Assembly: GCA_965238005.1 (NCBI GenBank)
Contig: OZ250165.1
Location: 2,688,001-2,752,000 of the forward strand
Origin: Longimicrobiales bacterium
Lineage (GTDB): Bacteria > Gemmatimonadota > Gemmatimonadetes > Longimicrobiales > Gaopeijiaceae
Length of the DNA stretch: 64,000 nt
Direction of reading: 5' to 3'
The notes below the pieces were generated by a model, which searched no databases, was not told where the DNA came from, and saw only the letters and a list, made by a program, of their open reading frames with translations. Both the position numbers and the translations under genes were made by a program. How positions within the stretch are numbered: position 1 is the first letter of the stretch; every line of letters begins with the position of its first letter. Below are positions 8,107-63,342 of this stretch, piece by piece.

Positions 8107-8110
8107 CGGT

Positions 8111-35590: not shown

Positions 35591-35905
35591 TCAGTCCCAG
35601 TCGCCTTCGGCGTCCCTCTTGAGCGCGCGGGCGAGCTCGGGATCGCCCTCACCGCGGCGGACCGAGCGCTCGACGAGGTCGACGCGGCGCCCGAGGTCGG
35701 CGAGTCCGGCAGCGCGCGCGACGCCGTAGATGGCGGCCGCAACGGCTGCAAGCCCCAGCGCCACGTGGAAAGCGATCGCAAGGCCGTGGTCCGCGAGAAT
35801 CACGGGCCAGAACGACGCGAGATACTGGAGGCGGGACCCGGCGAGGAGGAAGGCGGAGCCGACAAGTGCTGCGCTGAGCCCTACGCTGATTCTCCAGGGT
35901 TGCAT
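35591..35905 (-). CDS. Small membrane protein, last gene of the conjugation operon
   Basis: Two hydrophobic segments; starts 9 bp after the upstream stop. Confidence 0.6.
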   Translation of the reverse strand: MQPWRISVGLSAALVGSAFLLAGSRLQYLASFWPVILADHGLAIAFHVALGLAAVAAAIYGVARAAGLADLGRRVDLVERSVRRGEGDPELARALKRDAEGDWD

Positions 35906-36744
35906 GGCGGTGTGCTAGAGCTCGAGCGTGGCCGGGTCCCGCTCGGCGGGACCTCGTATGGAGCTGCGGTCGCCGTCTTGGCCCAGTGCTTGAAGCACCC
36001 GTGCGCGGCCAGCGGCTCCGTTGGCATGGACGACGAACCCGGCGTTGGCCTTGGCTCGGATGGAGGGGGCCCGGTAGTTACCCGAAGCGACCTCAATGTT
36101 GACACGTCCGGTCCGCCCGTCGGCGTCGACGCACTCGATCTGGGCGTCCGGATAGAGCACGCGGCCCCGGGCATCTATGGGTAGGCCGAGTTCGTGGGCG
36201 GCGCGGTGCCGCTCGGCGTCGGCGGCCCGCCGGCCGTCTCTCGCCCGCGCGGACTCGCTCTTGCGTGCTACGGCGCTCTTGAGCTCGCCGTCGAGCCGGA
36301 CGCGCCGGATGGCGGCGCCCTGCGTGAGCAGGCGTTGGTGCTCCAGCCGGCAAGCGCGATAAATGGCAGTGTCGTGTGCGGCTTCGGCGGGCCGGGTACG
36401 TGCGAACCCGATCTCCTGACCGGGATCCAGCCCTCGCGCGGAGGCCAGCTCGCGTGCGGCGGCGCCGCCGCTCCGTGTGAGGGTCAGGACCTTGAACGGC
36501 CTTCCCTTTGGTCCCTTGGCCGTGGACTCCTTGACGAGCCCTTCGCGGATCCAGGCGTTCACGGCCCGCCGCGTGGTGTAGGGATGCCCGCCGAAGTGAG
36601 CCTCGGCGAGATCGCGGTACGAGACGGCGCCGTAGATGCCGATGTCGGCGAGCGCCCCACGGCACCGTTCTCTGAAGGAGGTGGACCCGCGGTCCCGGCT
36701 CGCGTCGTATTCTCGGCGATGGCCGTCCCGCATGCGGTAGCTAG

Positions 36745-38345
36745 GAGTCTGCGCCGCAGAACCCTGCGGCGGCTATCTTTGGTGGTAGCGAAGGCATTGG
36801 GAAGGCTTGCGGATCACCGAGGGGGGTGAATGGGAACGACATTTCGACCGTACGATCCGGAGCAGATGTTGTTGCTGCCTCCGGATCTTCGGGAGTGGGT
36901 GTCGGAGGGTCATTTGGCGCACCATGTGAGCGACCTGGTGGACGCGGTGGAGCTGAGCGCGTTCTACGGGCGGTACCGGGGGGACGGGCGGCGCAACTCG
37001 CCGTACGACCCTCGGATGATGGTCAAGGTGCTGATCTACGCGTATGCGACGGGCACCTTCTCGTCGCGGAAGATGGCGAGGAAGCTGGAGGAGGATGTCG
37101 CGTTTCGGATGCTGGCGGCGGAGAACTTCCCGAAGCACCGGACGCTGTGCGAGTTCCGCAAGCGCCATCTCGGGGATTTCCGGGCGGTGTTTGTGGAGGT
37201 GGTGATGCTCGCGCGGGCCTTGGGGCTGGCGGGGCTTGGCAGGGTGTCGGTGGACGGGACGAAGGTTCGGGCGAACGCGAACAAGCGCAAGGCGATGAGC
37301 TACGGCCGGATGGTGACCGGGGAGCCTCGGCTGGAGGCGGAGATCCGGGGGCTGTTGGAGAGGGCCGAGGCGGTGGACGAAGCGGAAGACGAGCGCTACG
37401 GCGAGGAAGCATGCGGAGACGAGGTGCCGGAGGAGCTCAAGCGGCGCGAGGACCGGCTGGCGGCGATCCGGGAGGCGAAGGCGCGCCTGGAAGCCGAGCA
37501 GAGAGCGGCGGACGACGCACGGGGCCGCAAGCCGGGGCAGACGCGCAACCCGAAGGGCGGCAGGCCCTACAAGCGGGAGTACGGAGAGCCGGACGAGGCG
37601 GCGCAGAGCAACTTCACGGACCCTGAGAGCCGGATCATGAAGACGAGTTCGGAGGGGTTCCAGCAGTGCTACAACGCACAGACGGTCGTGGAGGGGGAGA
37701 ACCAGCTGGTGGTCGGGGCCGAGGTGACGGACAACGCGAGCGACCAGGGCCAGCTGGTGCCCATGGTCGACGCGGTGGCGCAAGCGTACGGCGAGACGCC
37801 GGCGCAGGTGCTGGCGGACACGGGCTATTGCAACGAGCGGGATCTCGAGGAACTGGAAGAGCGAGACATCGACGGGTATGTGGCGCTGGCCCGGGAGGGC
37901 AAGGCCGCCCCCACGGTTGACAAGGAGGAATATCCGGCGAAAGTCCGCATGGCGGAGAAGCTGGCGAGCGAAGATGGCCGCAGACGCTACGCACGGCGAA
38001 AGTCGCAGGCCGAGGCGCCCATCGGCTGGATCAAGGAAGTGATGGGCTTTCGACGATTCAGCTACCGGGGCCTCGAGAAGGTCCGGGCCGAGTGGACCCT
38101 CGTGTGCCTGGCACTCAATGTGAAGCGGCTGCACACCCTTCAGGCGGCATGACTGCACGAGGGTTCACCCGCATCTGCCGGCGCGAGGGCTCTCGTAGCT
38201 CTCTTGCCCCCCCAACGCATCCATTCCGCTCTCCCGATCCGTCGCAGACACAAGTCCTCAACCTCCCAATCACCCGGATCCGCCTCGCCGCGGACGGCTC
38301 GATGACCATTCGGCTCAGTCAGCTGTGCTTCTGCGGCGCAGACTC
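36745..38345 (+). mobile_element. Complete IS1182-family element, 1601 bp
   Basis: Perfect 17-bp terminal inverted repeats GAGTCTGCGCCGCAGAA; CTAG duplicated at 36741-36744 and 38346-38349. Confidence 0.92.
36830..38152 (+). CDS. IS1182-family transposase
   Basis: PYDPRMMVKVLIYAY..G.FSSR, VDGTKVRANA, TDPESRIM, YNAQ and LADTGY. Confidence 0.92.
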   Translation: MGTTFRPYDPEQMLLLPPDLREWVSEGHLAHHVSDLVDAVELSAFYGRYRGDGRRNSPYDPRMMVKVLIYAYATGTFSSRKMARKLEEDVAFRMLAAENFPKHRTLCEFRKRHLGDFRAVFVEVVMLARALGLAGLGRVSVDGTKVRANANKRKAMSYGRMVTGEPRLEAEIRGLLERAEAVDEAEDERYGEEACGDEVPEELKRREDRLAAIREAKARLEAEQRAADDARGRKPGQTRNPKGGRPYKREYGEPDEAAQSNFTDPESRIMKTSSEGFQQCYNAQTVVEGENQLVVGAEVTDNASDQGQLVPMVDAVAQAYGETPAQVLADTGYCNERDLEELEERDIDGYVALAREGKAAPTVDKEEYPAKVRMAEKLASEDGRRRYARRKSQAEAPIGWIKEVMGFRRFSYRGLEKVRAEWTLVCLALNVKRLHTLQAA

Positions 38346-38425: not shown

Positions 38426-39454
38426 TCAGCGGCCCGGACCGAAGTTCCGTTTGGGGAGCGGCAGCGGGAGCTCCGGCCTTGCGGCGTGCTGCGGGTCGGG
38501 AGCCCGAGTGGCGGCCACCGGAGTGGGCTCCCGCTCGGCCTGGCGCTCGCGGCTCCGGGCCAGCACGAAGTCGGAGATCTTCTGTGCGTCGGCCGCGGCG
38601 CGGCGGATCTCCCTTGGGTCTTCCTCGAGGGCAGTGACCCACCCCTCGACGTAGGCGGCCCCTCGGCTCGGGTCATGGCCGACGCCCACGCGCTCGCCGG
38701 TCATCATTGCGCTGATCTCCGCGCGGAGCTCCTCCTTCGCATAGGCCGGTGAGCCGAACCCTTCGCCGATCCCTTGGGTGAGCGTGGCGCGGTTCATCCG
38801 CTCGGGATGGCCCGTGCTGTGCCCCAGCTCGTGCAGCGCGGTCTGGTAGTAGTGGTTCGCCGAGGGGAACTGTCCCCTCTCCGGAAGCACGATCTCGTCG
38901 CGGTTCAGGTTGTAGAACGCCCGGTCGCCGGCCATGTGACGGACGGGGACCCCGCTGTCCTCGAGGACGCGTTCGGCCTGCTGGTGGACCTTCCAGAGCG
39001 GCTCGGCAGCGGGCGCGGGCCGCGCGGGCAACCCGTCGGCCTGCTCGGCGTTGAAGACGGTGTACTGCCGGACGACGGGCGCGCGCATCCGCTCGTATCG
39101 GTAGACGCGCTTGCCTTCGTTGTCCGTGACGGGCCGTCCGCGCTCGTCGTTGACGGCGATCTTCCGGTGGTCCTGGAAGGAGAGGATGCGGGTGCCCTGC
39201 TCGCCCTTCCGCACCTGTCCGCCCCGGGCTTGGATCTGGCGGTAGGTTCCCCAGCGCACGTCGCCGTAGCCGCGCTCCTGCTGGACGGCGGCAAGGTGCA
39301 GGCTGTTCCCTCCCGAGTAGGAGCGTCCGGTATCGACGTTCGCGGGAAGCACGCGCTCGCCCGGCCCCCAGGGCTTCTGCCAGGGCGCCGTGCCCTGGCG
39401 GATCTGCTCGATGACCCGGTCGGCGAACTGGCGGTGGTATTCGTCGTGTTTCAT
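38426..39454 (-). CDS. ardC: ArdC-family ssDNA-binding antirestriction protein
   Basis: PWQKPW, TGRSYSGGN and GGQVRKGEQG; zincin-like HELGHSTGH. Confidence 0.85.
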   Translation of the reverse strand: MKHDEYHRQFADRVIEQIRQGTAPWQKPWGPGERVLPANVDTGRSYSGGNSLHLAAVQQERGYGDVRWGTYRQIQARGGQVRKGEQGTRILSFQDHRKIAVNDERGRPVTDNEGKRVYRYERMRAPVVRQYTVFNAEQADGLPARPAPAAEPLWKVHQQAERVLEDSGVPVRHMAGDRAFYNLNRDEIVLPERGQFPSANHYYQTALHELGHSTGHPERMNRATLTQGIGEGFGSPAYAKEELRAEISAMMTGERVGVGHDPSRGAAYVEGWVTALEEDPREIRRAAADAQKISDFVLARSRERQAEREPTPVAATRAPDPQHAARPELPLPLPKRNFGPGR

Positions 39455-39651
39455 CGGTCTTCCTCCTCCCGGCCGTGCGGATCCTCCGAGGCGTCCCGGA
39501 TCTCGTCTTCGGTGCCCACGTCCTCGGGGAAGAGGCCGTACTCTTCTGCCAATGAGGCCGGGACCTGGAGGGTCTCGCCCCCGTCCCGTCCGAGCTCGCG
39601 GTCGAAGTCGTCGAGCGTCTCGACGCGGACGATCTTCTCGTCGCTTTCCAT
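39451..39651 (-). CDS. Small acidic hypothetical protein
   Basis: RBS upstream; ATGA overlap with ardC. Confidence 0.5.
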   Translation of the reverse strand: MESDEKIVRVETLDDFDRELGRDGGETLQVPASLAEEYGLFPEDVGTEDEIRDASEDPHGREEEDR

Positions 39652-39655
39652 GTCC

Positions 39656-39925
39656 TCACTCCTTTTCTGTTTGTTCTTCATCGTCCTTCCTCCAGACGGG
39701 TTCGGTGAGCCAGCGGTTGGCGGCCGCCTCGTAGCCCTTCACACGGAGCGCTTCCTCGACGAACCTCCGGCCCCCTCGCCGGGTCATGTGGACAACGAGC
39801 GAGATGCCGTCGACGACGCCCCTGCAGGTCACCTCCCAGGGGAGCGCGCCTCCGGCCTGCATGGCGCAACTCGCCAGGCGCGAGAGCGCGGAGCGGGCGT
39901 TGTTGGCGTGCACGGTGGTGAGCGA
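39656..39925 (-). pseudogene. trbB: VirB11/TrbB-type ATPase, C-terminal half
   Basis: SLTTVHANNARSALSRL continues the GHGG of the half at 46169-46889. Confidence 0.85.
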
Positions 39926-40425
39926 GCAGCTATCAACGATGTGCTTTAATCGTCGTAACTATATGATATATAGTTAGTTACAGATGAAGTAGTTTTTGGT
40001 ACGACTCGTTTCTATCGTATGTGATCCCGTATAAGCGGCGGGCGATTACACGGGAGCGTACGGTACGTTCGCGGAACCCGTGACGGGTTCTGCCTTCGGC
40101 GTCGCGCGGGGCTGAGGAAGACCCGGCAGGTGACGACGTGGCGATCCCGAAAACTGGAATCTCGTCGCGACGGCGGGGGCGTTCGGGCACATGCTGGCGA
40201 CGCGCGATGAGGCAGTCCCGAAGCGGGCCGGACGGTATGCGTTCGGGTCAGGGGATTATGAGGCCCTTGCGGGCAAGGTGTTTTCACAGGTCTCGCGGAG
40301 AGCGGGAAGACTCGCCAGAGGCCGAGAAGCCCTCAAGATGGGTCAGAGAAAGGGAGGGGAGGGTCCCAGGCTCCTGAGGGTCCTCCCTCCAGCTAGTGCG
40401 CTTCGGATCGCCCGCCGAACTCGAT

Positions 40426-41375
40426 CTATAGCCTGAACTTCGATTTGTGGATGTGGAACCATTCGCTAACCGCGTCGATGGCTACGCCCACCTGATCTCG
40501 CAACGTGCCAGCGCCGTCGCGAAGAGCCGCATCTGCAGCTTCCTTCGTTGCTACCACCTTCTCTACGGCAGCAGCGCGCGTGTCGTCCCCGATCGCCTGC
40601 CAGATGCGCTCACCCGAATTCCACGCGTACAAGCTTCCACCCACTCCTGCGAAACCCACCAGCACCGGAGTGCCCACAGTGACACCCAGCGCGCTCGCCG
40701 TGGCAACTACGCCGACTGTCGAACCGACGACAGCCGTGGCAATACTGACCGACCGCGCGAAATCAAGCACCGCAGTCCAAGCGCCTTTCGCCCGTTTACC
40801 ACGTGCAGCGTCTCCACAGAAGCTGAGACGGGCAATTCCACCAGGGCGCCGATTGCGCCGCCCCTCGCGAGGCTGGCCAGAATTGGGCGACGTGCAGCTC
40901 CCAAGCCCATGCGGGCGTTGTGCGTGTGCATCCGCAGCTTGTCCGGGAACCCCATGTCTCTGGGACCACGTCCTTGGTTCCATTTCGGAGGCTCAAAGAC
41001 CACGTTACCGGCGCTGGCCGCCAATTCGGGATGGCGATTCACTGATCGTATATGACTCACGTCATGGACGTCGAGAAAGCCCAGTACCGCCTTCCCACCT
41101 GCCACCCGAACACCGCCGGGAATCTTCCTATAGAGATCCTCCGCAGTTACCCGGCCGACATTTGCTCTCCAATTGACCGTCGATGCCCGCTGATTCAGCC
41201 TCGTGTGAACTTTGGGCAGGTCACTCAATCTCGCGGGAATGAGTTCGGCCCAGATTTTCTCCACCCACGGAGTCATGACTGAAGCTGCTTGCGACTGCAA
41301 ACCGACATTAGCGTGAGCTGACAGAGGTCCAGCAACTGCTAGGGTGACCAGAATGATGGTCACAAAGACCCTCAT
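40426..41375 (-). pseudogene. Signal-peptide protein with possible HNH-like motif and hydrophobic C-terminus; frameshifted near 40780
   Basis: MRVFVTIILVTLAVAGPLSAHA; DVSHIRSV..HPELA....NVVFE...WN..RG; two overlapping frames. Confidence 0.45.
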
Positions 41376-41795
41376 GGCTCTCCTCATGCGGGAAGCGGAC
41401 GACTGCCGGAGTGCGTCATCGGTACGCAACGGCCCGAGCACGGCAGACTGACCCCGTCATCCTAAACGTAAGTCCGGACGGCCACCTGCGTCCATGTCCG
41501 TTGCGCTCCCTCAGCGGCTTTCAGAGCGGCGATCACAGGTGGCCCCGAAGGCCCCACGGGGCCGTGACCCGGGGAGTTCGTCTGTTTCACGACCGCGGCA
41601 GGGCCGAGAGGAGCCCTCAGTGGCCGTCAGAGCCGACTTCTCGGCGCCGGATGACCCACAGGGGACCCGGGGATCCACTGCGGACGGTCCTCTCACACAT
41701 TGCGGAGCGCTATCGGTACGGTTTCTTATTGAGGCTGCGCCGCTGATAATCGTCAGCCTGCGTGCAAGCCATATTGCCAAGGGGTTACCCGATAG

Positions 41796-42560
41796 ATGAG
41801 TCTCGCTCAGGCAGTGGTGCAAGCAAGCCGCGCATTCGACCACGTCGCCCGCCGGACATGGTGCGTCAAACCGGCTGTGCCGATTCTTTTTTTCGGCGAC
41901 CTCGACGCGTATCGAGCTTCGCCGCTACACGTGCTGACGGTCGGACTGAATCCCTCGCGGCATGAGTTTCCGGCTGACCAGCCGTTCCTGCGCTTTCCGC
42001 TCGCAGAAGGCGGCCTTGGCGGGGAGCCATCCCGGTACCTCGAAGCAATGTCCGCCTATTTTCGAATCGCCCCCTACGACGGGTGGTTCAGCGCCTTCGA
42101 GCCGCTGCTCAACGGCATGAAGGCGAGCTACTACCACGGCGGCGCATCGACGGCGCTCCACACCGACATCTGCTCACCCGTCGCGACGAACTCGACGTGG
42201 AACGACCTCGACAAAGCTGATCGTGAAGCACTCGAGTCCGATGGCGGCCCGCTCTGGCACATGCTTCTGGAGGAGCTAGAGCCACAAATCGTGGCTCTGT
42301 CGGTGGCGAAGGCTCACCTCGAGGGCATCAAGTTCACGCCCTTGACCAGTTGGGAGGTCATCCACGCCTTCGAGCGGACAGGCAGCGGCGCCCTTCGGTC
42401 CCGACCGTACGAGGTCCACGCACGGTGGTACGACGTAGGCGGTGAACGGTCGCTGTTCATCTTCGGCAGAGCAGCTCAGAAGCCCTTTGGGCTGCTGGCC
42501 AACACCCACAAGCGCAAGGCAGGCGCGGTGGTACTGAAGGCATATCAGGATGGCCGATAA
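41796..42560 (+). CDS. Uracil-DNA-glycosylase-fold protein (atypical)
   Basis: ILFFGD...VLTVGLNPS motif A; HTDIC.P.AT; LLEELEPQIV. Confidence 0.55.
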   Translation: MSLAQAVVQASRAFDHVARRTWCVKPAVPILFFGDLDAYRASPLHVLTVGLNPSRHEFPADQPFLRFPLAEGGLGGEPSRYLEAMSAYFRIAPYDGWFSAFEPLLNGMKASYYHGGASTALHTDICSPVATNSTWNDLDKADREALESDGGPLWHMLLEELEPQIVALSVAKAHLEGIKFTPLTSWEVIHAFERTGSGALRSRPYEVHARWYDVGGERSLFIFGRAAQKPFGLLANTHKRKAGAVVLKAYQDGR

Positions 42561-43539
42561 GCGTTGCTTCGTTCAGTTCCCGCACCCGGGGGGCGAGCAC
42601 CGACCCGACCGTAGCGGAAGTAAGCCGTGGCACACCCGGGCAAGCAGCCATGCGCGGAAGTTCATGCAGTTCCCTGGCGAGTGGATTGCGTCGGACGACA
42701 GCCCGCACCGCGGCGAATTGTGGGCGTGGGGCGAGTGGGAGCCCGAGTCGCGCCTCATTCGTGAGCTCGACCAGTCCCGTGGCAACCGGGACTATCCGCG
42801 TTACCTCTGGCAGCCGTACTACGTCCTGAGGGACAACTACCGGGGACTGCACAATACCGACCCGTTCATCTTCGGCGAACGCTTCCTCTATTCGAACTGC
42901 CGTCAAGGGGCCCACAGCCCCGGCTTGATGCGCCTCGGTGAGGGGTCCGTGATCGCCTTCGGCAGCGGTAAGCAGGGAGTCGGGGGCGAGTGGAGATGGT
43001 GGCTCGATACCGTGTTCGTGGTCGCGAATTCCGATCTCTATCCGGTATCCGAGGCAGACCGGGTGCTGAAGGACTGGACGTCTGACGTGTTCGGCATCGT
43101 GACCGGCGGACCGCTCGCCGACAACCACGAAGGCGGGTGCGCAGCGGACGTGCGGCTCAGGCTCTATCGGGGCGCGACGCCGGACGATCCGGTGGACGGA
43201 ATGTTCAGCTTCTTCCCCGCGCAGCCCGCCGGTGACGGGACGGGCTTTCCGCGACCGGGCATCGACCTGCCAAGCGAGTACTTCAACCCCGCCTGCTATA
43301 TAGCTCCCAAGGGGGTCAGCCGCGAGCACTGCCGCGATCAGCTACACTCGATCTGGATGGCCCTCGTCGCGCAGGTGCGGCAAGCCGGGCTCGTGCTCGG
43401 CACATACGCGGAAGTGCCACCACAACGGGCACACACGGGTGCTTCTAACGATCTGAACACCGACGGAAACCGTTCTCTGGGAACGACCGCTCAGGTCCCG
43501 CTCAGGGCACCGAGATGCGGCAGATGTGCACAGCCATGA
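42550..43539 (+). CDS. Hypothetical protein, possibly nucleotide-modification-associated (Nmad-like)
   Basis: Clean ORF overlapping the upstream gene by 11 bp; HNTDPFIFG..FLYSNCRQ...L.EGSVIAFGS...LDTVFVV. Confidence 0.5.
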   Translation: MADKRCFVQFPHPGGEHRPDRSGSKPWHTRASSHARKFMQFPGEWIASDDSPHRGELWAWGEWEPESRLIRELDQSRGNRDYPRYLWQPYYVLRDNYRGLHNTDPFIFGERFLYSNCRQGAHSPGLMRLGEGSVIAFGSGKQGVGGEWRWWLDTVFVVANSDLYPVSEADRVLKDWTSDVFGIVTGGPLADNHEGGCAADVRLRLYRGATPDDPVDGMFSFFPAQPAGDGTGFPRPGIDLPSEYFNPACYIAPKGVSREHCRDQLHSIWMALVAQVRQAGLVLGTYAEVPPQRAHTGASNDLNTDGNRSLGTTAQVPLRAPRCGRCAQP

Positions 43540-43584
43540 TCAGCTCCTCCTCACAGCCTCTGCCACGTATGGGCAGGTGGAGGA

Positions 43585-43940
43585 CTTGATGATCCAGGCT
43601 TCCGAGCGTCGGGCGACGAGTTCGTTTAATGTACGAGAGCCAGCATACCCCTTGGGGCCACGCTTCGCGGGTCCCGGGCAGGGGCTGGCGAGGGGTAGCT
43701 CCGCCCCCCTTCGAACCCCCGAGGCCCGCGCTCCTGCGGAGTGCTTTGCCCCCCTCCCCCTTGCCGGTGCGCTGATGGCTGAGCGCCGCACGTCACCGCC
43801 GCCGCCCGCGTATCGCCAGCTGAGCTCACCGACTGGCGGGCCACGGCAACGGTCGCTGGCGTGCCTCTCTCGGAGCTGATGCGGCAAGCCATGGCACGCG
43901 CACGGACGTGGGCCGCCCCGACATCGGCGGAGCGAGTGAT
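43585..43940 (+). pseudogene. mobC: Degenerate oriT (copy 3) and mobC remnant
   Basis: Homologous to 11700-12060; GAGCCAG in place of TAAGCCAG; ATGGCTGAGCGCCG at 43775, frameshifted. Confidence 0.65.
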
Positions 43941-43973
43941 ATTGAACCCACGCTACCATTGGGAGGCATGCCG

Positions 43974-44606: not shown

Positions 44607-44689
44607 AATGTCGGGCCGGTCATCCGGCTCCCAACCCCACTAGCCGGCCCTCGGACTCGCGAGGCTTTTGGAGCGGATCGCTCGCGAAC

Positions 44690-44780
44690 TCCGCCGGAGC
44701 GCGCGCCTCCAGGGGATCGAAGGGGCGGAGCCCTCGCCAGCCCCAATGTACCCACATTGGGTAGGCTGGCTTAAGCACCT
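44690..44780 (-). other. ColE1-type oriT, copy 4
   Basis: CTGGCTTA at 44766-44773; hairpin CCCAATGT-accc-ACATTGGG; about 45 bp downstream of the integrase. Confidence 0.7.
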
Positions 44781-44818
44781 TAGTCTCCGCCTGAGGTGCC
44801 GCGACGGTGGGCTGCAAC

Positions 44819-51900: not shown

Positions 51901-51918
51901 GGAGCTGGAGGGGTTGGA

Positions 51919-52749: not shown

Positions 52750-52767
52750 CCCACCAACCGTCCCCGC

Positions 52768-53745: not shown

Positions 53746-53885
53746 GCGGGTCATGAGCCGTTCACGGTTATCCAGCGTCAACCGGGCGTTTGCGGCAGCG
53801 AAGCCACTCGGGTCGGTCGGAGGATCATGCCATCCATCTCACTGGGGGTCTTGTGGGAAAGTCTTACAAAATGTAAGATAGGATC

Positions 53886-54982: not shown

Positions 54983-55205
54983 GCGGCCGGATAGAGGTAG
55001 GAGTACGGTAATCGCCTGAAACCCGGCCTCACCGAAGTGAGGGTCTACTCGGCTGGTTGCCGCCCGCGGACCGAGGACCAGTGGTTTTCTTTGGCCCTGC
55101 ACGGTGAGCGTAGCGCGCCGGGACGGTGGAGGTCGCCCACACCACGACCTTCTGCCGATCAGCTACAGGTGCGCGGTGCCGACGCGGACGATTCGCCCAA
55201 TTCCT

Positions 55206-57782
55206 TCACAATGTCCCCCGAAACAGCATCTCGTTCAGCCGCGCCTGCCACTCGTCCTCATCCACGACCTCGAAGCGCAGCACCTTGCTTCGCATCGCGG
55301 GCGCGAACTCGGCCCAATCGGCCTTGCGGGCGTGCTCGCTGCAGATGTCGAAGACGGACCGCTTGTATTCGGTATCCTCAGACGCCTTCAGGTGAACACC
55401 CTTGGTTTCGACCACGAACACCTGGTGGAAGCCGTCGTCCGCCCCGGGCTCGTCGCTCTGCAGTGTCACGATGAAGTCGGCGTAGATCCGGCGCGGCTTC
55501 CATCCCTGCACGTAATAGTCCTTGCGGGCGCGGTTGCGGTACCAGAAGAACAGCCGCGCCTGCTGGTCCAGGTAGGTCGCGACCTTGTTCTCGAACTGGT
55601 TGAGATCGTCCTCCGTGGTAACGTCGAAGAGGTTGCGCTGGTAGGGACTGCCGTCCTCTCGGTTCGCCTGCTTCGCCTTCGGGCCCTCGATCTTCTCGGG
55701 CAGGCGACCGAATTCAAGATCCTCTGCGACGACCAGAAAACGCATCCTTCCCGACTCTAGGAGGGCACGGAAGACCTCGCGCGACAGGCGGTCGCGCTCC
55801 ATCTCGACCTGTCGGCGCAGCTCTTCAAGGACGAACACATGATTGGCCGCCACCCGCTTGGTTGGGTAACGCTTGAGCAGGACCTCGAAGGTGCGTCGGG
55901 CGAGATCGCGGCCCCACCACGGGTTGGGAACCAGGTCCAGGAGGTGGCTGGCCGCGAAAAAGTAGTCCACGGGATCGCCGCCGTTACCCGAGTCGGCGGC
56001 GGGGGGGGCTTCGACGTTTCCGGGATCACCGCCGTTCGGGACGCCCGGCTCCACAACACGTTCCTCGGTCAGGTTCGCCCGGAGCAGGTCATCTCCCCCT
56101 CGCCCCTCGTCCAGCGTCAGATCGTCCAGCGCGGAGAGGTCGATGTCGTCCCAAGGCAACCGCGAAAGGATGTCCGCCTCGTAATGGACCAGACGCCAGC
56201 CGTCCACATCCCGGATCATGAACGCGGGAAAGACGAGATCACGCGCCGCCGCTCTATACGGCGTGCGCTGCCGGGTCGCCAGCTTCTCCGTTGGGCGCGT
56301 CGGGCCGCCATCGGATACCACCCTCCCTTCGAGGCCCTGCAACCCCTCCAACCCGAACCCCTTCCTGACCTCTTTCAGCAGTTCGTTTCCCCGGCGGCTG
56401 AAGCAGAAGACGTAGCTCTCGTCAAGCAGGGGCACTCCCGTCTTGCACGCGTAGGGCTGCCGCAGGATCCGGCCCACCAACTGGGTGATCCCCGTTTTCG
56501 ACATCGGGTTGGTGAGGATAGTGAGGACGTAGGCGAACGGGCAGTCCCAGCCCTCCTGCAACGCTTGTTTGGTGATGATGAAGCGGATCGGACAGTCGCG
56601 GGACATCAGGCCACCAACGTCGTCCACCTCCTTGAGTTCGTCCTTCACGCTAGTCTTGACCGCAATGTGCTCCGGAGCGATTCCCGGGTGCTGGAGCAGG
56701 TACTCGCGCACATCATCGGTGTGCACGTACCCGGGCTTCCTCTGCTCCTTGCCGGTCCGCTCCACCTGGATTACGCAGATGGGACGGATGTAGGTCCCGG
56801 ACTCGGCTTCACGAAGCCGCGCCTCGGCCTCGAGAGTTTCGCGGTGTTCGACCGACTCCAGCAGCGTGCCGCGCCAGTCACCGCTCGCCTTGTTACGGAT
56901 GTGCAGGTCGAGCTTGATCATCTCCTCAGCGTTGAGTTCCCGGCCCAGGATCTCGACGAGCACGTTGGCAGCGTTGGCCGGAGTGGCCGAAAGCTCGACG
57001 ATCATGCAGGGGTTGAACCCTTCGAGCGTTGCCTTCGCGTTGACGCTGTAGGCCTTGTGTCCCTCGTCGAGGATAATCAGCGGTCGCAGCAGCCGCACGG
57101 TGTTCCCGAGGGATGTCTTGATGTAGCGGCCCCAGAACCCCGTCGTTTGCTCGAAGGTGTCCAGATTGGGGTGTTCCTCAAGCAGTTTGGCGTGCGCGGC
57201 GGGATCGTCGTCCGGGGGGAAGAACCTGTCGAAGCCGCCGCTGTCGCGGAACATCCGGAGCGTATCCTTCGTCCGCCGGTTAGCCGACGGGAGCATGAGC
57301 AGGAGGATGCATAGGTTCTCGGCGACATCGCGCGGGCCGAACGCCATAGTCTTCTCGAAGATGCGCGTGCGCTGACCCGAAGAAAGGTCGAGCTGCTGCC
57401 GGTACGGGTGGTCGCGGTCCTTGAGCGCCCTGAGCGTCTGGTTGTAGATCTGCGTCGTGGGCACGATCCACAGCACCAGGCCGCGCCGGCTCTGCCGGAA
57501 TTGCGCGTTGACGAGATCGATCACCCGCGTCGCGAGCAGCGTCTTGCCGCCGCCGGTCGGGATCTTGAGGCAGAAGGCGGGAAGCTGCTCGCCGAGTCCG
57601 TTGCGGCGGGGGTGGTAGGGCCGCCCGGCCACGGTCTTGCCCCAAGCCCGCTGCACCCAGTCGAACCGCCATTCGGAGTCCTGGCTTCGCGCCGCCGCGT
57701 CCTTCTCCCGCCACACCGCAAGCTGTTCGAGGAAGCTGCGGACCGTCGCCAGCGTCTGCTTCTGGTATTCCTTCAGGATCAT
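55206..57782 (-). CDS. res: Type III restriction endonuclease Res
   Basis: PTGGGKT, DEGH, SAT, EGWDCP, QLVGRILR and ADF...VETKG. Confidence 0.88.
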   Translation of the reverse strand: MILKEYQKQTLATVRSFLEQLAVWREKDAAARSQDSEWRFDWVQRAWGKTVAGRPYHPRRNGLGEQLPAFCLKIPTGGGKTLLATRVIDLVNAQFRQSRRGLVLWIVPTTQIYNQTLRALKDRDHPYRQQLDLSSGQRTRIFEKTMAFGPRDVAENLCILLLMLPSANRRTKDTLRMFRDSGGFDRFFPPDDDPAAHAKLLEEHPNLDTFEQTTGFWGRYIKTSLGNTVRLLRPLIILDEGHKAYSVNAKATLEGFNPCMIVELSATPANAANVLVEILGRELNAEEMIKLDLHIRNKASGDWRGTLLESVEHRETLEAEARLREAESGTYIRPICVIQVERTGKEQRKPGYVHTDDVREYLLQHPGIAPEHIAVKTSVKDELKEVDDVGGLMSRDCPIRFIITKQALQEGWDCPFAYVLTILTNPMSKTGITQLVGRILRQPYACKTGVPLLDESYVFCFSRRGNELLKEVRKGFGLEGLQGLEGRVVSDGGPTRPTEKLATRQRTPYRAAARDLVFPAFMIRDVDGWRLVHYEADILSRLPWDDIDLSALDDLTLDEGRGGDDLLRANLTEERVVEPGVPNGGDPGNVEAPPAADSGNGGDPVDYFFAASHLLDLVPNPWWGRDLARRTFEVLLKRYPTKRVAANHVFVLEELRRQVEMERDRLSREVFRALLESGRMRFLVVAEDLEFGRLPEKIEGPKAKQANREDGSPYQRNLFDVTTEDDLNQFENKVATYLDQQARLFFWYRNRARKDYYVQGWKPRRIYADFIVTLQSDEPGADDGFHQVFVVETKGVHLKASEDTEYKRSVFDICSEHARKADWAEFAPAMRSKVLRFEVVDEDEWQARLNEMLFRGTL

Positions 57783-59398
57783 TGTTCCAGCCTATCGATC
57801 GCTTCGTAGATCTGGAAGGGGAGCTGCTGGAAGTCGATCCGGTACTTGTGAAGGAACTCGCGATCGAGGTACTTGGTGGGCGCGAAGACGAGCTTCCTTC
57901 TCGATCCGGAGGGCAGGGTGCGGGCCATTGGCAACGAAAGCGCGAGATTCTTGAGCTTGTCGACATCGGGCTCGTAGAAGAGGAAGACATCGTGGGACGC
58001 GGTGCGCCCGACGAATCCGGTGTCAAAGTTGGTCTCGGTCGGGTCGAACTCCTGTCCGGTCGCCGTGAAGAAGATGTAGGAGGCCAGTTTCTCCCACGAC
58101 GGCAGGTGGGAGCCGTCGAGGAGCGACTCCTGGCGCATGGGGCGCCCAAGCTCGAAGTAGCTGAAGGTGCCGCCGAGGCCGGCCTTGAGGGCATCGTCCC
58201 TGGCGCTCGGAACCCCTTGAATGACGCGCCGAACGCGCTCGGCGGTGATGGTGTTGGCGTAGTCCTCGCACTCGACGAGGATGAAGCGCCGGTTGCCGCC
58301 GTCTTCCCGGTTTTGGGCGAGAACGGCGTGGGCCGTGGTGCCCGAACCGGCGAAGGAATCTAGGATGATCGAGTCGGGGTCGGTGGACAGGAGTACCATC
58401 CGCTGGATGAGCTCGAAGGGCTTGGTGGTGAAGCCGGGCAGCTCTTCCGGGAAGAGCTGTAGCAGCGTCTTCTTCGCACCCTGTGTGTGGTTGACTTCCT
58501 TGTAAGTCCAGATTGTCTCCGGGACCAATCCCGGCTGCACCTCGGACAGAAACCGTTTGATGGCGGGAACCTGGTTCTCGTCGCTACCCCAGAAGATCTG
58601 GTTGTCCTTGTCCAGTTCCCGGAAGCTGTCCTCCGAGACGGACCAGAATCGTCCAGCCGGGGGGCCATCGATGACCCGCCCCCCCGGACACCTAATCGCG
58701 TAGGTGCCCTTGCTATAGGGATTGCGTGCAGAAAGATCGCTGGACTTCCAAGATCCGCGTGGATCGTCATCCGGGTTCCCATAGCGTGCGTCGGCCTCCT
58801 TCGTCCGCGGAAGCAAGTTTCTCTTGAACAACTCCCTTCGTTTCGCGTACACGACCACGAAGTCGTGGTTTTCTGAGAAGTACTTCGCGCTGCTCTTCGG
58901 AGAGTACACTTTCTCCCAAATGATGGTCGCCACAAAGTTCTCCTCCCCGAACACCTCGTCCATCAGACAGCGCAGATGGTGCACCTCGTTGTCGTCGATG
59001 GACACGAAGATCGCCCCGTCCTCCCGGAGCAGTTCGCGGAGCAGCTTCAAGCGCGGCATCAACATGCAGCACCACTTGTCGTGCCGGGTCAGGTCATCGC
59101 GGTCCACCACCCGGCCCAGCCAGTCCCGCATGAGGGGCGAATTCACGTTGTCGTTGTACGCCCAGCCCTCGTTGCCCGTGTTGTAGGGCGGATCGATGTA
59201 GACGCACTTTACCTTTCCGTGATAGGTCGGCAGCAGAGACTTCAGCGCGGCCAAGTTGTCGCCGTGGACGATCAGGTTGTCGTGGAGGCTCGCCTTCTCG
59301 CTCAGCCCGTTCTCTCGCGCCGGCAGCAGCTCGTGGAAGGGTACGGCCAGGTGATGGTTCTCTACGAATACCTTCCCCTTGAAGTGGAGCCGTGGCAA
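57779..59398 (-). CDS. mod: Type III DNA methyltransferase Mod
   Basis: GDNL, YIDPPYN, SIDDNE and LDSFAGSGTT; ATGA overlap with res. Confidence 0.9.
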   Translation of the reverse strand: MPRLHFKGKVFVENHHLAVPFHELLPARENGLSEKASLHDNLIVHGDNLAALKSLLPTYHGKVKCVYIDPPYNTGNEGWAYNDNVNSPLMRDWLGRVVDRDDLTRHDKWCCMLMPRLKLLRELLREDGAIFVSIDDNEVHHLRCLMDEVFGEENFVATIIWEKVYSPKSSAKYFSENHDFVVVYAKRRELFKRNLLPRTKEADARYGNPDDDPRGSWKSSDLSARNPYSKGTYAIRCPGGRVIDGPPAGRFWSVSEDSFRELDKDNQIFWGSDENQVPAIKRFLSEVQPGLVPETIWTYKEVNHTQGAKKTLLQLFPEELPGFTTKPFELIQRMVLLSTDPDSIILDSFAGSGTTAHAVLAQNREDGGNRRFILVECEDYANTITAERVRRVIQGVPSARDDALKAGLGGTFSYFELGRPMRQESLLDGSHLPSWEKLASYIFFTATGQEFDPTETNFDTGFVGRTASHDVFLFYEPDVDKLKNLALSLPMARTLPSGSRRKLVFAPTKYLDREFLHKYRIDFQQLPFQIYEAIDRLEQ

Positions 59399-59736
59399 GG
59401 AGCCCTCCTTTGGCGCGTCCAGAGTGTCTCAAGCGCTCCGCCCGCTAGCATCGGACGGATGTTCACCCCCCAAAACTAATGCCTCATGCCCCGGCCGCGC
59501 AGGTCACGCGGCGGTCGTCCGCAGCCGATCCCGTGCCCGTTCCGCCTGCCTCTAGGCCCGGTCGCGTTCGATCCCCCGGCGTCATCTCTGTTGAACCCTG
59601 CGGGGGCGTTTGCCGTGCCGCTGGCGGCGGTGTCCAACAGCCCCTGTACCGTACTGAACGTCTCTGAACGCCACAGGCATTTAGGAGGTTTTCTACGGGT
59701 TGACTTCCTTGCAAACGGCTCCTCACCGTTAGGGGC

Positions 59737-60711
59737 ATGGAGACGCGGAAGCAGCAGTTCAACTCGGCGGCGAGCGATGCGATCGTCCACCTCCAGGGAC
59801 GCGAACAGGCGCTCGCGCCATTCGGCTGGACGGGAGAAAAGGCCGGGTGGATCGCGTTCGTCTGCCTCCACAGCGGCGCGTTCACCCGCGCCCAGTGCGC
59901 GCGGTTCCTTGAAGCGCACCCCGAACAGGTGCGGCGCGTCGTCCACGCCCTGATCGCGCAGGGCCTGGCCGCCGAGGAGACCGTGCCCGACGTCCGCGGG
60001 ATCGGCCGCGTGTGCCGGATCCATGCACGGAGCCTCTATCGCGCGCTCGGAGCCGAGCACATCCGCCACCGCCGCGACGCCTCTCCAGAGGTGCTCATGC
60101 GGCGCCTGCTCTCGCTCGACTACGTCATCGATCATCCCGGCCTGCCGTGGCTTGCCACCGAAGCCGAGAAGGTCGCCGCGTTCGAGGCCCTCGACATCGA
60201 CCGGGGGCTGCTGCCCGTCAGGGTGTACCGGGGAGCCGCCAGCACCGCGCGGCGCTACTTCCCGGTCAAGCTGCCGGTCGCGCTGGACGCCGAGCGCGCC
60301 GTCTTCGTCTACGCCGATCCCGGCCACGATACCGCGACCGCGCTCCGCTCCTGGGGCGTGGCGCACCGCCAACTCTGGTACGCGCTCCGGAGACAAGGCA
60401 GGTCAGTTGAGGTCGTCGTCGCCGCGCGCACGCATCGGGAGATGGAGCGGGCGCGGCAGGTCATGCGAGGCTGGGCCAGGCCTTCCGGCCACGCCGAACC
60501 CGCCCCCGAGGTCCGTGAGGAACTCGACCGGATCGAGCGGGCCATTCTCGAGGGCGCGGTCCAGATCCTCGAAGAGTTCGGCGGCCTCCAGGCCGCCATG
60601 AAGCGCAGCGTCGCGCTCACGAAACAGGCACGGCGACAGGCCGTCCACGGATCGATCCGCCGGGGCAGCACATGGCGGACCGCGCGCCTCGCCGGGGCTC
60701 GCTACCGATGA
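59737..60711 (+). CDS. wHTH-containing mobile-element protein of unknown function
   Basis: Long ORF paralogous to 24024-24272; first 10 codons derive from the HTH-AlpA gene start. Confidence 0.65.
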   Translation: METRKQQFNSAASDAIVHLQGREQALAPFGWTGEKAGWIAFVCLHSGAFTRAQCARFLEAHPEQVRRVVHALIAQGLAAEETVPDVRGIGRVCRIHARSLYRALGAEHIRHRRDASPEVLMRRLLSLDYVIDHPGLPWLATEAEKVAAFEALDIDRGLLPVRVYRGAASTARRYFPVKLPVALDAERAVFVYADPGHDTATALRSWGVAHRQLWYALRRQGRSVEVVVAARTHREMERARQVMRGWARPSGHAEPAPEVREELDRIERAILEGAVQILEEFGGLQAAMKRSVALTKQARRQAVHGSIRRGSTWRTARLAGARYR

Positions 60712-61027
60712 GCGGGGCGCGACTTACGGCCGGACTGGAGTGCGCAAACGACGTGGGGGTGCGATTCACACTTTGGCCCTCCGGCGATTCACAGGGGCCT
60801 TCCCGCGTATCCACTGGCGGGGCCGTGTCTTGCGCATCCGTGGCCCGGACGGCCGGCGCCGCGCGGGCCGCACCGGCCGTGGCGGGAGCGACCCCCCCTT
60901 CGGGATGCCTGGTACGGCATCGGGGAGGGTTGACATGTGCACGCACCTGCCACCCCTCCCCGGCGGGGTCGCTCCCGGCCAGATATCCCTCCGGGAAGGG
61001 TTTTCAACGCCGCTGCCAGGCGGCGGA

Positions 61028-62410
61028 TCACCCAGTTCGCCGACCGTCCAGCCGGTGTGTCGGCGCTACCGCGAAGGACCCGGGCGGGGAGCTGGGGACA
61101 GGGCCGACCGTGGGAGGCACGGCTCCAGCTACCGGGAACGGCGGGCCGTGAGTTGGTGTTCCGGGATCCCCGGCGACGTTGGTATTTCGGAAAGCCCCGG
61201 TTCCGTGAGTCGCCTCGATCTCTTCCCCGGCTCTGAGCCGGTCCAGATAGTCGGCCCAGGCCTGCATCATCACGCGGCGCTCGGGCAGGAACGCCGTCCG
61301 GTTGTAGGCCCGGCCGTTGGGGTCCCTGACCCGGTGGGCCAGCTGGTGCTCGATGAAGTCGGGCCGGAAGCCCAGCACCTCGTCCAAGATGGTGCGCGCC
61401 ATCGCCCGGAAGCCATGCGGCGTCATCCGTTCCGGAGGGATGTCCAAGGCCCGGAACGCCCCCCAAAAGGTGGTGTTGCTCATCGTCCGGTCGCGTTGCC
61501 GATAGCGCGCATTCGGGAACACGTAGCGGTGGTGCCCCGTCACGGGATGCAACTCGCGAAGGATCTCGACCGCCTGACGCGCCAGTGGGACCACATGCGG
61601 CGTGTCGGTCTTGGTCGCCGTGTAGCGCCACTCGGCTCCATCGAGGTCGATGTCGGCCCATTCGGCCTTGCGCAACTCGCCGGGCCGCACGAAGAGCAGC
61701 GGCACCAGACGCAGCGCGCACCGCACCGGCAGCGTGCCCGGGTAGCCGTCCAGGAGCCGGAGAAGCGGGCCGACCTCCTTCGGGTCGGTGATCGCCGGGA
61801 AGTGCTTCCGCTTCACCGGAGGGAAGGCTCCGCGCAGGTCCCCCGACACGTCCCGCTCCGCTCGGCCCGTTGCCACCGCATAGCGCAGCACCCGCCCACA
61901 GACCTGAAGCGTGCGATGCGCCGTGTCCAGGGTGCCGCGGGCTTCGATGCGGCGCAGCGCGGCCAGCAGCTCCGGTGCCGTGAGCTCCGCGACCGGCTTC
62001 TCTCCGATCCACGGGAAGACATCCTTACCCAGATCGCGCTCGAGTCGCCGAGCGTAGCTCGCGCACCAGTTCGGCGAGTGCTTGGCGAGCCATTCAGCGG
62101 CCACGGCCTCGAAGCTGTTCCTGGCCCATTGCCGCTTCGACTGCTTCTGCGCCTTCCGGTAGGCGCTCGGGTCGATGTCCCGGGCCAGCAGCTTGCGGGA
62201 ATCGTCGCGCCGCTCGCGGGCGAGCTTCAGCGAGACCTCGGGATAGATGCCCATCGAGATGCGCTTCTCCTTCTCGGCGAAACGGTACTTGAAGCGCCAG
62301 GCCTTGGTGCCGCGCGGGGCGATCTCGAGGTACAGGCCGCGGCTGTCGTAGAGCTTGCGCGGCTTGTCGCGGGGCTTGGCCTTTCGGATGGCGGTGTCGG
62401 TCAGCGGCAT
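61028..62410 (-). CDS. P4-type tyrosine integrase
   Basis: MPLTDTAIRKAKP...GLYL, RPGELR, HGFRAMART and QLAH...AYNR. Confidence 0.92.
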   Translation of the reverse strand: MPLTDTAIRKAKPRDKPRKLYDSRGLYLEIAPRGTKAWRFKYRFAEKEKRISMGIYPEVSLKLARERRDDSRKLLARDIDPSAYRKAQKQSKRQWARNSFEAVAAEWLAKHSPNWCASYARRLERDLGKDVFPWIGEKPVAELTAPELLAALRRIEARGTLDTAHRTLQVCGRVLRYAVATGRAERDVSGDLRGAFPPVKRKHFPAITDPKEVGPLLRLLDGYPGTLPVRCALRLVPLLFVRPGELRKAEWADIDLDGAEWRYTATKTDTPHVVPLARQAVEILRELHPVTGHHRYVFPNARYRQRDRTMSNTTFWGAFRALDIPPERMTPHGFRAMARTILDEVLGFRPDFIEHQLAHRVRDPNGRAYNRTAFLPERRVMMQAWADYLDRLRAGEEIEATHGTGAFRNTNVAGDPGTPTHGPPFPVAGAVPPTVGPVPSSPPGSFAVAPTHRLDGRRTG

Positions 62411-62579
62411 GTTGGGGCACCGGTTGAGGTTTCAGGAATATGCCCCAAAACATGCCCCAGAAAAGTCGTGGCTGTCAAGGGGTGGCACTGGATGTTCCGG
62501 AGTATGAGAAATCTCCCAACTCATTATATATCACTGTTTATGTGTACACTAAGGAGCATTACTGCACGTCAATGGATGC

Positions 62580-63342
62580 GCCGGTGCAGTTCGACGATCC
62601 AGCGCACGAGATTCGTATAGGCTTGCTGCCAGAACGGTTCGCGGCTCTTGCCGAAGAGCTGGTTGATCAGGGAGGCGACGCTGTAGGCGAGCGAGTAGGT
62701 ATCGAGGAGGGGATCGTCGAGCGGGTTCCACTGCCAGGCGCCGTCGAGCCCGATCTCCACGTAGTCGTCCCCGCGCCCGGCGTCCCCGAGGATCCGGCGC
62801 ACCGCGTGGCAGAAGTCGCCCTTGACCTCGAGCACCAAGGCGCTGGCCCGGCGTGCGGGCCGGTCGGCCTGCCACGAGAGGAGCTGCTGGGCGAACGGAT
62901 ACATGCAGGCCGAGGTCTTGCCGGAGCCGACGGCGCCGACGATCAGGATGCCGGTGTAGAGCCCCGTCTCGGGAACGACGAGCCAGGAGGGCCGCTCGCT
63001 CTCGCGCGGGACGACGGGATGGTGGAGCTCGCCGATCACCAGCGATGGTGTCTCGTCCTCGGGCGAGGCGGGCCAGGGTGGCAACGTGCCCCGGCGCCCT
63101 CCTCCCGCTCGTGGCTGGAGCCAGACTCTCCAGACCGAGAGGCCGAGGCTGCCGAAGAGCACCACGGCGACGGCGGGCGCCACGTAGTACCAGACGCGGA
63201 TCACCGTGTGGAAGCCCGGATCGTGGTAGGCGATGAGGTCGAGCACGGGATTACCGCCGCTGGCGGGAAACGGCGCCCAGAAGGCGTGGGCGATCGCGGC
63301 CGCGGCGGCGGCGCCAGCCAGGATCAGCGCGGGCCGCCTCAT
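62580..63342 (-). pseudogene. VirD4/TraD-type coupling protein, N-terminal half
   Basis: Two transmembrane segments; GAVGSGKT Walker A; VLEVKGD, WNPL and PFW. Confidence 0.82.

Follow-up and report, generated by a model that had tools for sequence, protein, structure and literature searches.

Mobile elements nested inside the conjugation genes of larger elements have been described in streptococci, where integrative and mobilizable elements (IMEs) with serine integrases occupy particular positions inside traG (VirD4, two sites), maff2 and snf2 within ICEs (conjugative elements that are also integrative) belonging to the Tn5252 superfamily, and Tn6104 in Clostridioides difficile is a comparable nested element (PMC5357655, PMC5704250). 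Both papers suggest that induction of conjugation could trigger excision of the IME and thereby restore the module (PMC5357655, PMC5704250); the first cites sigK (skin) and comK as precedents and notes that such IMEs end in many decayed ICEs (PMC5357655), and a further study reports that no excision was detected for the nested IMEs tested (PMC7168690). Here we analyse a 64,000-nucleotide stretch (the window; G000:C1:2688001-2752000) from the 4.84-Mb, single-contig genome (64.8% GC) of a Longimicrobiales bacterium of the phylum Gemmatimonadota, in which two islands, E1 and E2, each with its own P4-type tyrosine integrase, break the genes for the VirB11-like ATPase and the type IV coupling protein (T4CP) of an ICE. 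A preliminary description of this DNA had read the pair as a possible excision-gated switch on a conjugation operon. The switch idea is already published for the serine-integrase IMEs in streptococcal traG, and what is new here is the tyrosine integrases, the phylum and the larger set of targets. In the literature outside subscription journals, our searches turned up no report of such islands in virB4, virB11 or virD4 beyond Firmicutes, and none of Gemmatimonadota ICEs.

E1 and E2 resemble the streptococcal IMEs in being small integrase elements that sit site-specifically inside ICE conjugation genes, with at least two T4CP sites and many decayed ICEs. In contrast to those elements, which use serine recombinases and belong to Firmicutes, E1 and E2 use P4-type tyrosine integrases with arm sites, occur in Gemmatimonadota and belong to a set whose targets extend to VirB11, VirB4, VirB8 and unnamed backbone genes; both are without a recognised relaxase, and E1 is without a recognisable mobilisation gene. 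Islands with P4-like integrases typically insert at the 3' ends of tRNA genes. With these, E1 and E2 share the three-domain integrase, an integrase gene beside one attachment (att) end, arm-type repeats and variable cargo, whereas their targets are protein-coding ICE genes, their core is 7-9 bp long and no AlpA-type gene lies inside them. Two precedents, skin in sigK and the prophage in comK, likewise break a gene that precise excision rebuilds (as is predicted for E1 and E2), but there a host gene regains function within an intact pathway and at a set point of development, while the operon around E1 and E2 is broken. In retargeting of the lambda/HK022 type, heterobivalent integrases shift their site via a changed overlap sequence; the clade of the E1 integrase, in comparison, is a natural series in one genome with all its targets in one ICE backbone. 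ICE3 of Mesorhizobium reportedly has its att pairs at intergenic or tRNA/guaA sites, where they serve to assemble the element. ICE3 resembles the window ICE in having several tyrosine recombinases on one conjugative element (PMC5882170). In E1 and E2, direct repeats enclose cargo islands that lie inside genes, a geometry that ICE3 does not match, and the analogy is a looser one.

Results

Insertion sites of E1 and E2

From 35.6 to 63.4 kb of the window every backbone gene is on the minus strand, and the order of transcription is T4CP N-half, E2, T4CP C-half, VirB11 N-half, E1, VirB11 C-half, a 76-amino-acid (aa) open reading frame (ORF), ArdC, an insertion sequence (IS), p272 and p104. The islands, their integrases and the gene pieces that they separate are the following.

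62580-63372, minus: T4CP N-terminal piece, 264 aa, with a GAVGSGKT P-loop, ending ...WIVELHR and then RIH and a stop; 79.5% identity to residues 1-264 of the T4CP of ICE paralogue H (H_T4CP)
48169-62579, minus: island E2, 14,411 bp, a mosaic with remnants of other mobile elements; paralogues E, H, I and M have its two flanks directly joined
61028-62410, minus: Int2, 460-aa P4-type tyrosine integrase of E2, start ~170 bp from the att core
46886-48168, minus: T4CP C-terminal piece, beginning LLPGGW... after the repeat; Pfam TraG-D_C 1.9e-7 and TrwB_AAD_bind 7.6e-5; aligns with H_T4CP 255-689
46170-46889, minus: VirB11-like N-terminal piece, 240 aa, ending ...NTGHGGSL and then ISST and a stop; T2SSE 3.3e-35; 85% identity to H_VirB11 1-242
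39926-46168, minus: island E1, 6,243 bp, splitting the VirB11-like ATPase
44819-46006, minus: Int1, 395-aa P4-type tyrosine integrase of E1, start ~160 bp from the att core
40013-40035, minus: distal arm-type repeat block of E1, CATACGATA and TATACGGGA, with a twin at 46014-46035
39656-39925, minus: VirB11-like C-terminal piece, from SL/TTVHAN... to the stop; tblastn match to H_VirB11 residues 239-333

E2 is flanked by a 9-bp direct repeat, TGCACCGGC, at 62580-62588 and 48160-48168, and E1 by the 7-bp direct repeat TCGCTCA at 39919-39925 and 46169-46175. The preliminary description had proposed that removal of each insert rebuilds a gene whose halves are undecayed, and this proved correct: without 48160-62579, pieces of 264 and 424 residues join into a T4CP of 688 aa counted from the first ATG (the 678 aa given earlier start at the second Met, at 63342), compared with 689 aa in paralogue H; without 39919-46168, the VirB11-like protein is 327 aa long; and none of the four gene pieces contains a stop or a frameshift. 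The stretch interrupted by E1, NTGHGGSL/TTVHAN, is presumably the His-box of the ATPase.

The genome contains ~10 paralogous T4CP-VirB11-ArdC-p272 modules, and a BLAST search within it shows that the flanks of each insert abut in unbroken paralogues with an overlap of exactly 7 or 9 bp, as at g877632-877637 (VirB11) and g694991-694999 (T4CP). At the E1 site, VirB11 is unbroken in 7 of the ~10 modules, while T4CP is complete in copies E, H and M, and copy I is continuous over the E2 site though broken elsewhere. Because intact paralogues run continuously over both sites, excision would restore both frames, with ...GGATCGCTCACCACC... as the predicted empty-site junction in VirB11 and ...CTGCACCGGCTCCTG... 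in T4CP. Judged on the alignments, the insertion pattern is far beyond chance. Own copy F was considered as a further interruption of the first site and rejected, its sequence being a truncation ~25 nucleotides (nt) upstream of the core.

Int1 and Int2 are both full length, as had been claimed, and each has the three domains Arm-DNA-bind_3, Phage_int_M and Phage_integrase (Pfam 1.8e-17, 1.1e-27 and 9.5e-13 for Int1; 1.7e-26, 3.5e-35 and 5e-15 for Int2), with Int1 also matching NCBIfam PRK09692 at 2.4e-47. The 9-mers TATACGGGA and CATACGATA occur twice each in the window, once per E1 end and in the same orientation, as would be expected of arm-type binding sites. The arm repeats of E2 are weaker, with 4 of the 13 window copies of TGGGGCA lying within 170 nt of its ends.

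Integrase relatives in the host genome

Matches to the four integrases of the region were found at 26 loci of the own genome, and at 15 of them the integrase start has an ICE backbone gene no more than 2.5 kb away. Flanks were scored against an incomplete canonical backbone set, which makes the ICE-flank counts lower bounds. The sites assigned to each clade are listed below, where Int3 belongs to a third island and Int387 is the integrase of the ICE itself.

Int1 clade (84-100% identical): VirB11 residue 242, VirB4 residue 747 and VirB4 residue 272, one locus each; flank of the fourth member unrecognised
Clade 58-59% identical to Int1: T4CP residue ~510, 3 of 4 loci
Int3 clade (at least 92%): T4CP start, 3 of 3 loci
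Clade 53% identical to Int1: T4CP residue 197 and p353 residue 202, one locus each
Int4: VirB8 residue 86, one locus
63% relative of Int3: adjoining Int387, one locus

Integrases of the Int1 clade start 157-160 bp from the core; the fixed offset is 167-173 bp for the clade of the second T4CP site and 78 bp for the Int3 clade. Siblings of the Int1 clade share the element arms ...CTG[A/C] - 7 nt - TCT[C/G]C..., and their 7-bp overlaps equal their respective targets, namely TCGCTCA in VirB11 and CGCCACG and TCAACCG in VirB4. The integrase family has evidently diversified, with fixed sites in one ICE family that comprise T4CP (~4), VirB11, VirB4 (2), VirB8, p353, p322 and p104. The suggestion that the islands target the transfer genes of their helper is borne out, in that the targeting is specific and is repeated at the same sites, with the same junctions, across copies and species.

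Recurrence in other genomes

The ICE type was found in 9 of 71 sampled genomes. Members of the Int1 family occur in 4 of the 41 relatives searched (G000, which is the host genome, G001, G002 and G005), and 6 of the 14 foreign loci have a backbone gene within 1.5 kb. In 3 of 3 foreign loci fetched, an E1-like end (83-85% identical over 172-307 bp) abuts a VirB11 C-piece at codon ~239. C-pieces of VirB11 that start at residues 229-240 were found in G000 (2), G001 (2) and G104, and the VirB11 site is occupied in the window, in own copy C, twice in G001 and in G104.

For E2, the junction of 23 nt between the island end and T4CP (attR) occurs, as an exact match, five times, in four genomes and three genera, as opposed to zero times for the reversed control; outside the own genome the occurrences lie in G001, G005 and G243. 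Orthologues of Int2 in the sister species G001 (97.5-98.9% identical) lie beside T4CP residue 264 in all three attL junctions found there, and the residue-264 site is occupied in the window, own copy B, G001, G005 and G243. T4CP fragments with an end at residues 254-273 are frequent, with 12 foreign ones in G001, G005, G104 and G243; these positions are alignment ends and are verified only at the junctions checked by the 23-nt match or attL. More distant relatives of Int2 (78-87% identical), at 15 foreign loci, are flanked by p322 residue 227 in seven cases, by p104 residue 68 in two and by a distant p104 fragment in one; at the remaining five nothing was recognised, and T4CP flanks none of the 15.

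The related genus represented by G007 has five full-length T4CP and five full-length VirB11 genes of the same ICE type, with no match to the Int1 family at E<=1e-60 and none to the Int2 family at E<=1e-80. Because both genes are intact in these five copies and none of the integrases is present, the ICE exists without the islands and has no need of them. G007 offers a natural island-free control.

The host element and the state of its window copy

The element was defined on copy H, a near-complete ICE paralogue at g812-848 kb. Its gene order opens with a large surface protein and a pair of AlpA-type genes; VirB4, a VirB9/CagX-like protein and further ORFs come next, then VirB6/TrbL-like, VirB8-like, p353, T4CP, VirB11, a small ORF and ArdC, followed by p299, p104, p129 and the XerC-like integrase Int387. 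The full-length T4CP of copy H matches Pfam TrwB_AAD_bind (4.9e-10) and TraG-D_C (1e-7) and, under its cut-off, NCBIfam conju_CD1115 (1.1e-8); with VirB4, VirB9, VirB6 and VirB8 as neighbours, it qualifies as a divergent member of the type IV coupling proteins (VirD4/TraG/TrwB). The VirB11-like ATPase matches Pfam T2SSE at 3.1e-48, NCBIfam VirB11 at 1e-65 (221.8 bits against a cut-off of 249.95) and a TadA-type conjugal ATPase profile at 2.8e-66, also under its cut-off; it thus stays below every equivalog threshold. We class the host element as a divergent VirB-type ICE, and protein family scans of copy H matched none of the known relaxase families. Homologues of the window proteins are labelled Gemmatimonadota or 'Candidatus Palauibacter'. 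The remaining backbone genes of the window copy, and the insertions in it other than E1 and E2, are as follows.

63375-64000, plus: left end of a third island, E3, running to window-equivalent 78721, with Int3 at 63451-64752 (plus)
39451-39681, minus: 76-aa small backbone ORF between VirB11 and ArdC, with high GC at third codon positions (GC3) and a 65-aa ORF at the equivalent place in copy H
38426-39454, minus: ArdC-like anti-restriction / zincin protein of the ICE backbone; Pfam ArdcN 1.5e-32, MPTase-PolyVal 2.5e-37
36745-38345: IS, 1,601 bp, with 16-bp terminal inverted repeats and a CTAG target duplication
36830-38152, plus: DDE transposase of the IS; Pfam DDE_Tnp_1, DDE_Tnp_1_6, DUF772
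35915-36733, minus: p272, ICE backbone (p299/p295 family), aligning with H_p299 residues 27-299 and severed from its upstream region by the IS
35591-35905, minus: p104, conserved ICE backbone gene without an assigned function, 71% identical to H_p104 of copy H

The preliminary description had omitted the IS and E3, and its operon is a fragment of the ICE only. The IS, with its CTAG duplication, lies in or just before the 5' end of p272, and paralogue K is unbroken at the corresponding place. The genome has ~50 copies of this IS at >99.6% identity, which points to a recent burst. After p104, both p129 and Int387, the integrase of the ICE itself, are absent from the window copy. E3 has an imperfect 16-bp repeat (63359-63374 and 78722-78737), and paralogue I is continuous there; E3 separates T4CP from p353, and its end provides the current ATG-CAG start of T4CP. 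Int3 is by Pfam a three-domain arm-binding integrase like Int1 and Int2. With E3 at the start codon the T4CP ORF stays whole but is severed from p353, a layout also seen in copy H and one more own copy.

Beyond the window, in window-equivalent positions, 22 kb and a change of strand separate the C-part of VirB8 (79957-80364, minus) from its N-part (102158-102433, plus), and VirB4 is broken into three, at 120664-121470 (minus), 91104-92555 (plus) and 97643-98035 (plus). Within 79957-121470 each of these pieces adjoins an integrase or the end of an element, with the pairs interleaved. The layout could have arisen by inversion between related islands or ICEs present as inverted copies. Other own ICE copies show deletion fusions, truncated ArdC and partial integrases.

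A regulated switch calls for precise restoration of the frame and an otherwise intact pathway. The first is predicted here from the continuity of the paralogues, and the second is contradicted by the IS, the absence of p129 and Int387, E3 and the scattered virB8 and virB4. The earlier proposal that the helper works only once the islands are excised thus found no support, given these lesions, the island-free G007 and the lack of a recognisable excisionase in E1 and E2; plain parasitic knock-out, which had been named as the alternative, is the better fit. The ratio of nonsynonymous to synonymous divergence (dN/dS), put forward earlier as a check for relaxed selection, was computed and does not discriminate, although no relaxation is visible: it is 0.08-0.44 for the four pieces against paralogues (0.44 being reached by the short C-piece of VirB11 when set against distant copies), 0.08-0.26 when each piece is compared with its nearest paralogue and 0.16-0.21 from intact to intact copies. 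It cannot decide because dS to the nearest paralogue is 0.17-0.34 and most of the divergence may predate the insertions.

Public data consisted of 22 runs, all in the form of metagenome (Logan) contigs, over a 20-kb range that ends before the right end of E2. Contigs of runs X1-X4 over 39400-59399 contain no joint bridging E1, and contigs cannot show rare excision; cargo is present at low depth and conserved parts at high summed depth. Loose contig ends at 39927 and 48165 were considered as excision products and rejected, as they differ from the window N-halves by 3 of 22 and 2 of 30 letters. They run into unbroken VirB11- or T4CP-like sequence, one matching the allele of own copies B and F, and evidently are paralogues or other strains.

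Mobilisation and excision genes

An origin of transfer (oriT) motif had been reported for each insert. This was not confirmed: a repeat scan gave no inverted repeat in E1, five unremarkable ones in E2 and no convincing oriT candidate in either. Scans with Pfam and NCBIfam matched no relaxase family in E1 or E2. Among 34 ORFs of E1, E2 and the backbone, searched at E<=1, there was no AlpA, Xis or HTH_17 match, and tblastn with three AlpA proteins of the ICE placed none within E1 or E2; the ICE backbone, by contrast, has two AlpA-type genes, located upstream of virB4. The statement that the inserts have no transfer genes stands for E1, where nothing recognisable was found, and needs qualifying for E2, which carries a paralogue of a backbone gene.

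59737-60711, plus: p324, a winged-helix protein with an unmatched alpha/beta domain, paralogue of ICE backbone p353

By tblastn, p324 and p353 are 49.7-57% identical. More than 1,190 homologues of p324 were found, none of them named. In its AlphaFold model (pLDDT 74), residues ~11-144 resemble a MarR-type winged helix-turn-helix at Z 6-7, while Foldseek against the PDB returned nothing at E<=0.001 and a profile search against PDB sequences nothing. A role for p324 in DNA processing or regulation, giving E2-type islands access to the machinery of the ICE, is conceivable.

Cargo and neighbouring genes

The cargo of the two islands includes the following.

55206-59398, minus: E2, type III restriction-modification (R-M) system, with res at 55206-57782 and mod at 57779-59398
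51214-51827: E2, IS1595 and Mutator transposase fragments
50384-51118, minus: E2, AbiU2-type HEPN protein; Pfam HEPN_AbiU2 1.5e-12
49806-50097: E2, 3' remnant of an integrase
40707-41441 (minus), 41796-42560 (plus), 42550-43539 (plus) and 43908-44606 (plus): E1, four ORFs without an assigned function

The type III R-M system is complete (PADLOC REase_III 7.2e-165 and MTase_III 4.6e-170; Pfam ResIII and N6_N4_Mtase). E2 additionally encodes an HhH-GPD-like protein, a PadR regulator and a two-gene cassette inside a repeat. The cassette genes (51919-53487, one weakly Abi_alpha-like) lie within a short repeat, 51593-51900 and 53613-53738, that recurs many times in the genome, and metagenome contigs from runs X1 and X2 skip 1.7 kb at 51900-53614. 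Downstream of the PadR regulator, ORF 54134-54982 contains 96-bp tandem repeats (54239-54516), with a 92-96% identical copy ~2 Mb away.

The E1 cargo has no Pfam, NCBIfam or PADLOC match at E<=0.001. Two of its ORFs, p254 and p329 (41796-43539), overlap and have widespread unnamed look-alikes in Bacteroidota, Chloroflexota and Bacillota; they may be a DNA-modification or defence gene pair. A cluster atlas gave weak leads for the E1 cargo, namely Nmad3 at 0.88 and UDG in 11% of one cluster.

Among the small backbone proteins, p104 has no Pfam match, the 76-aa ORF gave no match in a family search and p299 none in a search against the PDB. Rfam gave 0 matches, and the window contains 0 tRNA genes. 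Upstream of the AlpA genes, the ICE backbone includes giant surface proteins of 2481 and 1292 aa, at 25347-32792 of the window and window-equivalent 85799-89677, with Calx-beta, LRR, cadherin-like and Ig domains; they show internal repeats and an inverted duplicate of 92% identity (24394-27102 and 87924-90631). Defence genes are dense at 4597-22921, with a Type ISP R-M enzyme (4597-8106), a PLD-helicase (8111-11260), a T5orf172 protein, a DEAD helicase, a YafQ/RelB toxin-antitoxin pair (18569-19193), an enzyme of the MmeI family divided among three successive ORFs (19223-21972) and an AbiEii fragment.

Discussion

We favour, with a probability of roughly 0.8, the reading that E1 and E2 are islands of a site-specific guild that uses ICE genes as landing pads, and that at this locus they are plain knock-outs of an already broken ICE copy. 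Each island would be inserted through site-specific recombination by its own P4-type arm-binding tyrosine integrase, E1 into conserved codons of the VirB11-like ATPase (NTGHGGSL/TTVHAN) and E2 into the coupling protein, with integrase subclades each recognising a short core of 7-9 bp in an ICE backbone gene. ICE copies, living or dead, would thereby act as landing pads. Insertion is precise, the att architecture is conserved and the junctions are the same across paralogues, species and genera, with a cargo in E2 that is of defence type. Such sites may be favoured because disruption of an ICE gene would be free of cost to the host and the target travels with the ICE. The islands would spread by excision and mobilisation, E2 having a paralogue of a presumed DNA-binding protein of the backbone and E1 nothing recognisable, or, alternatively, be carried along within ICEs that are complemented in trans. 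Excision at this locus would repair the two frames without yielding a functional transfer system.

Several observations weigh against this account. Ten of the 26 own integrase loci have no recognised ICE flank, and one more has only a weak, 40% Int387-like match. Undecayed gene pieces and low dN/dS would also fit maintained function. Excision of the islands, their circular forms and their transfer are predictions from sequence; their mobilisability is presumed, as E1 has no recognisable mobilisation gene and the role of p324 is predicted. With AlpA-type genes in the backbone, outside the islands, ICE-controlled excision of the islands is conceivable.

This last point leads to the arrangement in which the islands lock two ATPase genes until induction of the ICE excises them and rebuilds the genes, such that ICE and islands transfer. 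Frames restored exactly on predicted excision, undecayed gene pieces and two intact integrases are what it would call for, the AlpA-type genes upstream of virB4, absent from E1 and E2, could be a shared trigger, and the same hypothesis, that of Coluzzi and Guedon, is in print for traG-nested IMEs (PMC5357655). However, this ICE copy also has the IS and E3, lacks the ICE integrase and has virB8 and virB4 scattered; G007 keeps five copies with intact T4CP and VirB11 and no such integrases; many junctions elsewhere have no partner half nearby; and Libante 2019 detected no excision of the ICE-nested IMEs that were tested (PMC7168690). We regard it as distinctly unlikely. Somewhat easier to entertain, though still unlikely, is that the islands are kept because they benefit the host, by disabling conjugative elements and supplying defence genes, with selection acting on the host rather than on mobility. 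The type III R-M system and AbiU2-like HEPN protein of E2, the wealth of defence genes in the window and its surroundings and the fact that all three ATPases of the type IV secretion system (T4SS) are struck would agree with this, but the conserved att architecture, intact integrases and identical junctions across genera point to active site-specific mobility, the E1 cargo has no recognised defence function, and ICE copies decay by many other routes too.

A multipartite ICE, whose integrases rearrange separated pieces into one transferable element, is very improbable. Outside the window the virB8 and virB4 pieces are inverted, lie beside an integrase or element end and have interleaved pairs, and ICE3 of Mesorhizobium is described as assembled by three recombinases (PMC5882170). 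Yet the att repeats of E1 and E2 are direct and surround discrete cargo, an arrangement from which excision rather than inversion is expected; decay is indicated by the truncated ArdC, the deletion fusions and the partial integrases; and dozens of near-identical IS copies together with many paralogous elements can explain inversions via homologous recombination. An extension of the landing-pad reading would have a Gemmatimonadota guild, present in the genus of the window and several sister genera and using a dozen fixed ICE sites, including all three T4SS ATPases, act in intact ICEs as reversible locks that AlpA-type proteins of the ICE release jointly on induction, the islands leaving with the ICE. 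This is a speculative and rather unlikely idea; if true, the transfer machine would be rebuilt only on induction.

E1 and E2 provide no working genetic switch at this locus. With them, nesting in conjugation genes, described for IMEs with serine integrases in Firmicutes, extends to islands with tyrosine integrases in a phylum that has received little study. The natural series of closely related integrases, which share their arms but differ in the 7-bp overlap, can help in understanding retargeting and perhaps in engineering it. For annotation, the islands explain the conjugation gene 'fragments' in these genomes, where ICE remnants are landing pads that gather defence cargo.

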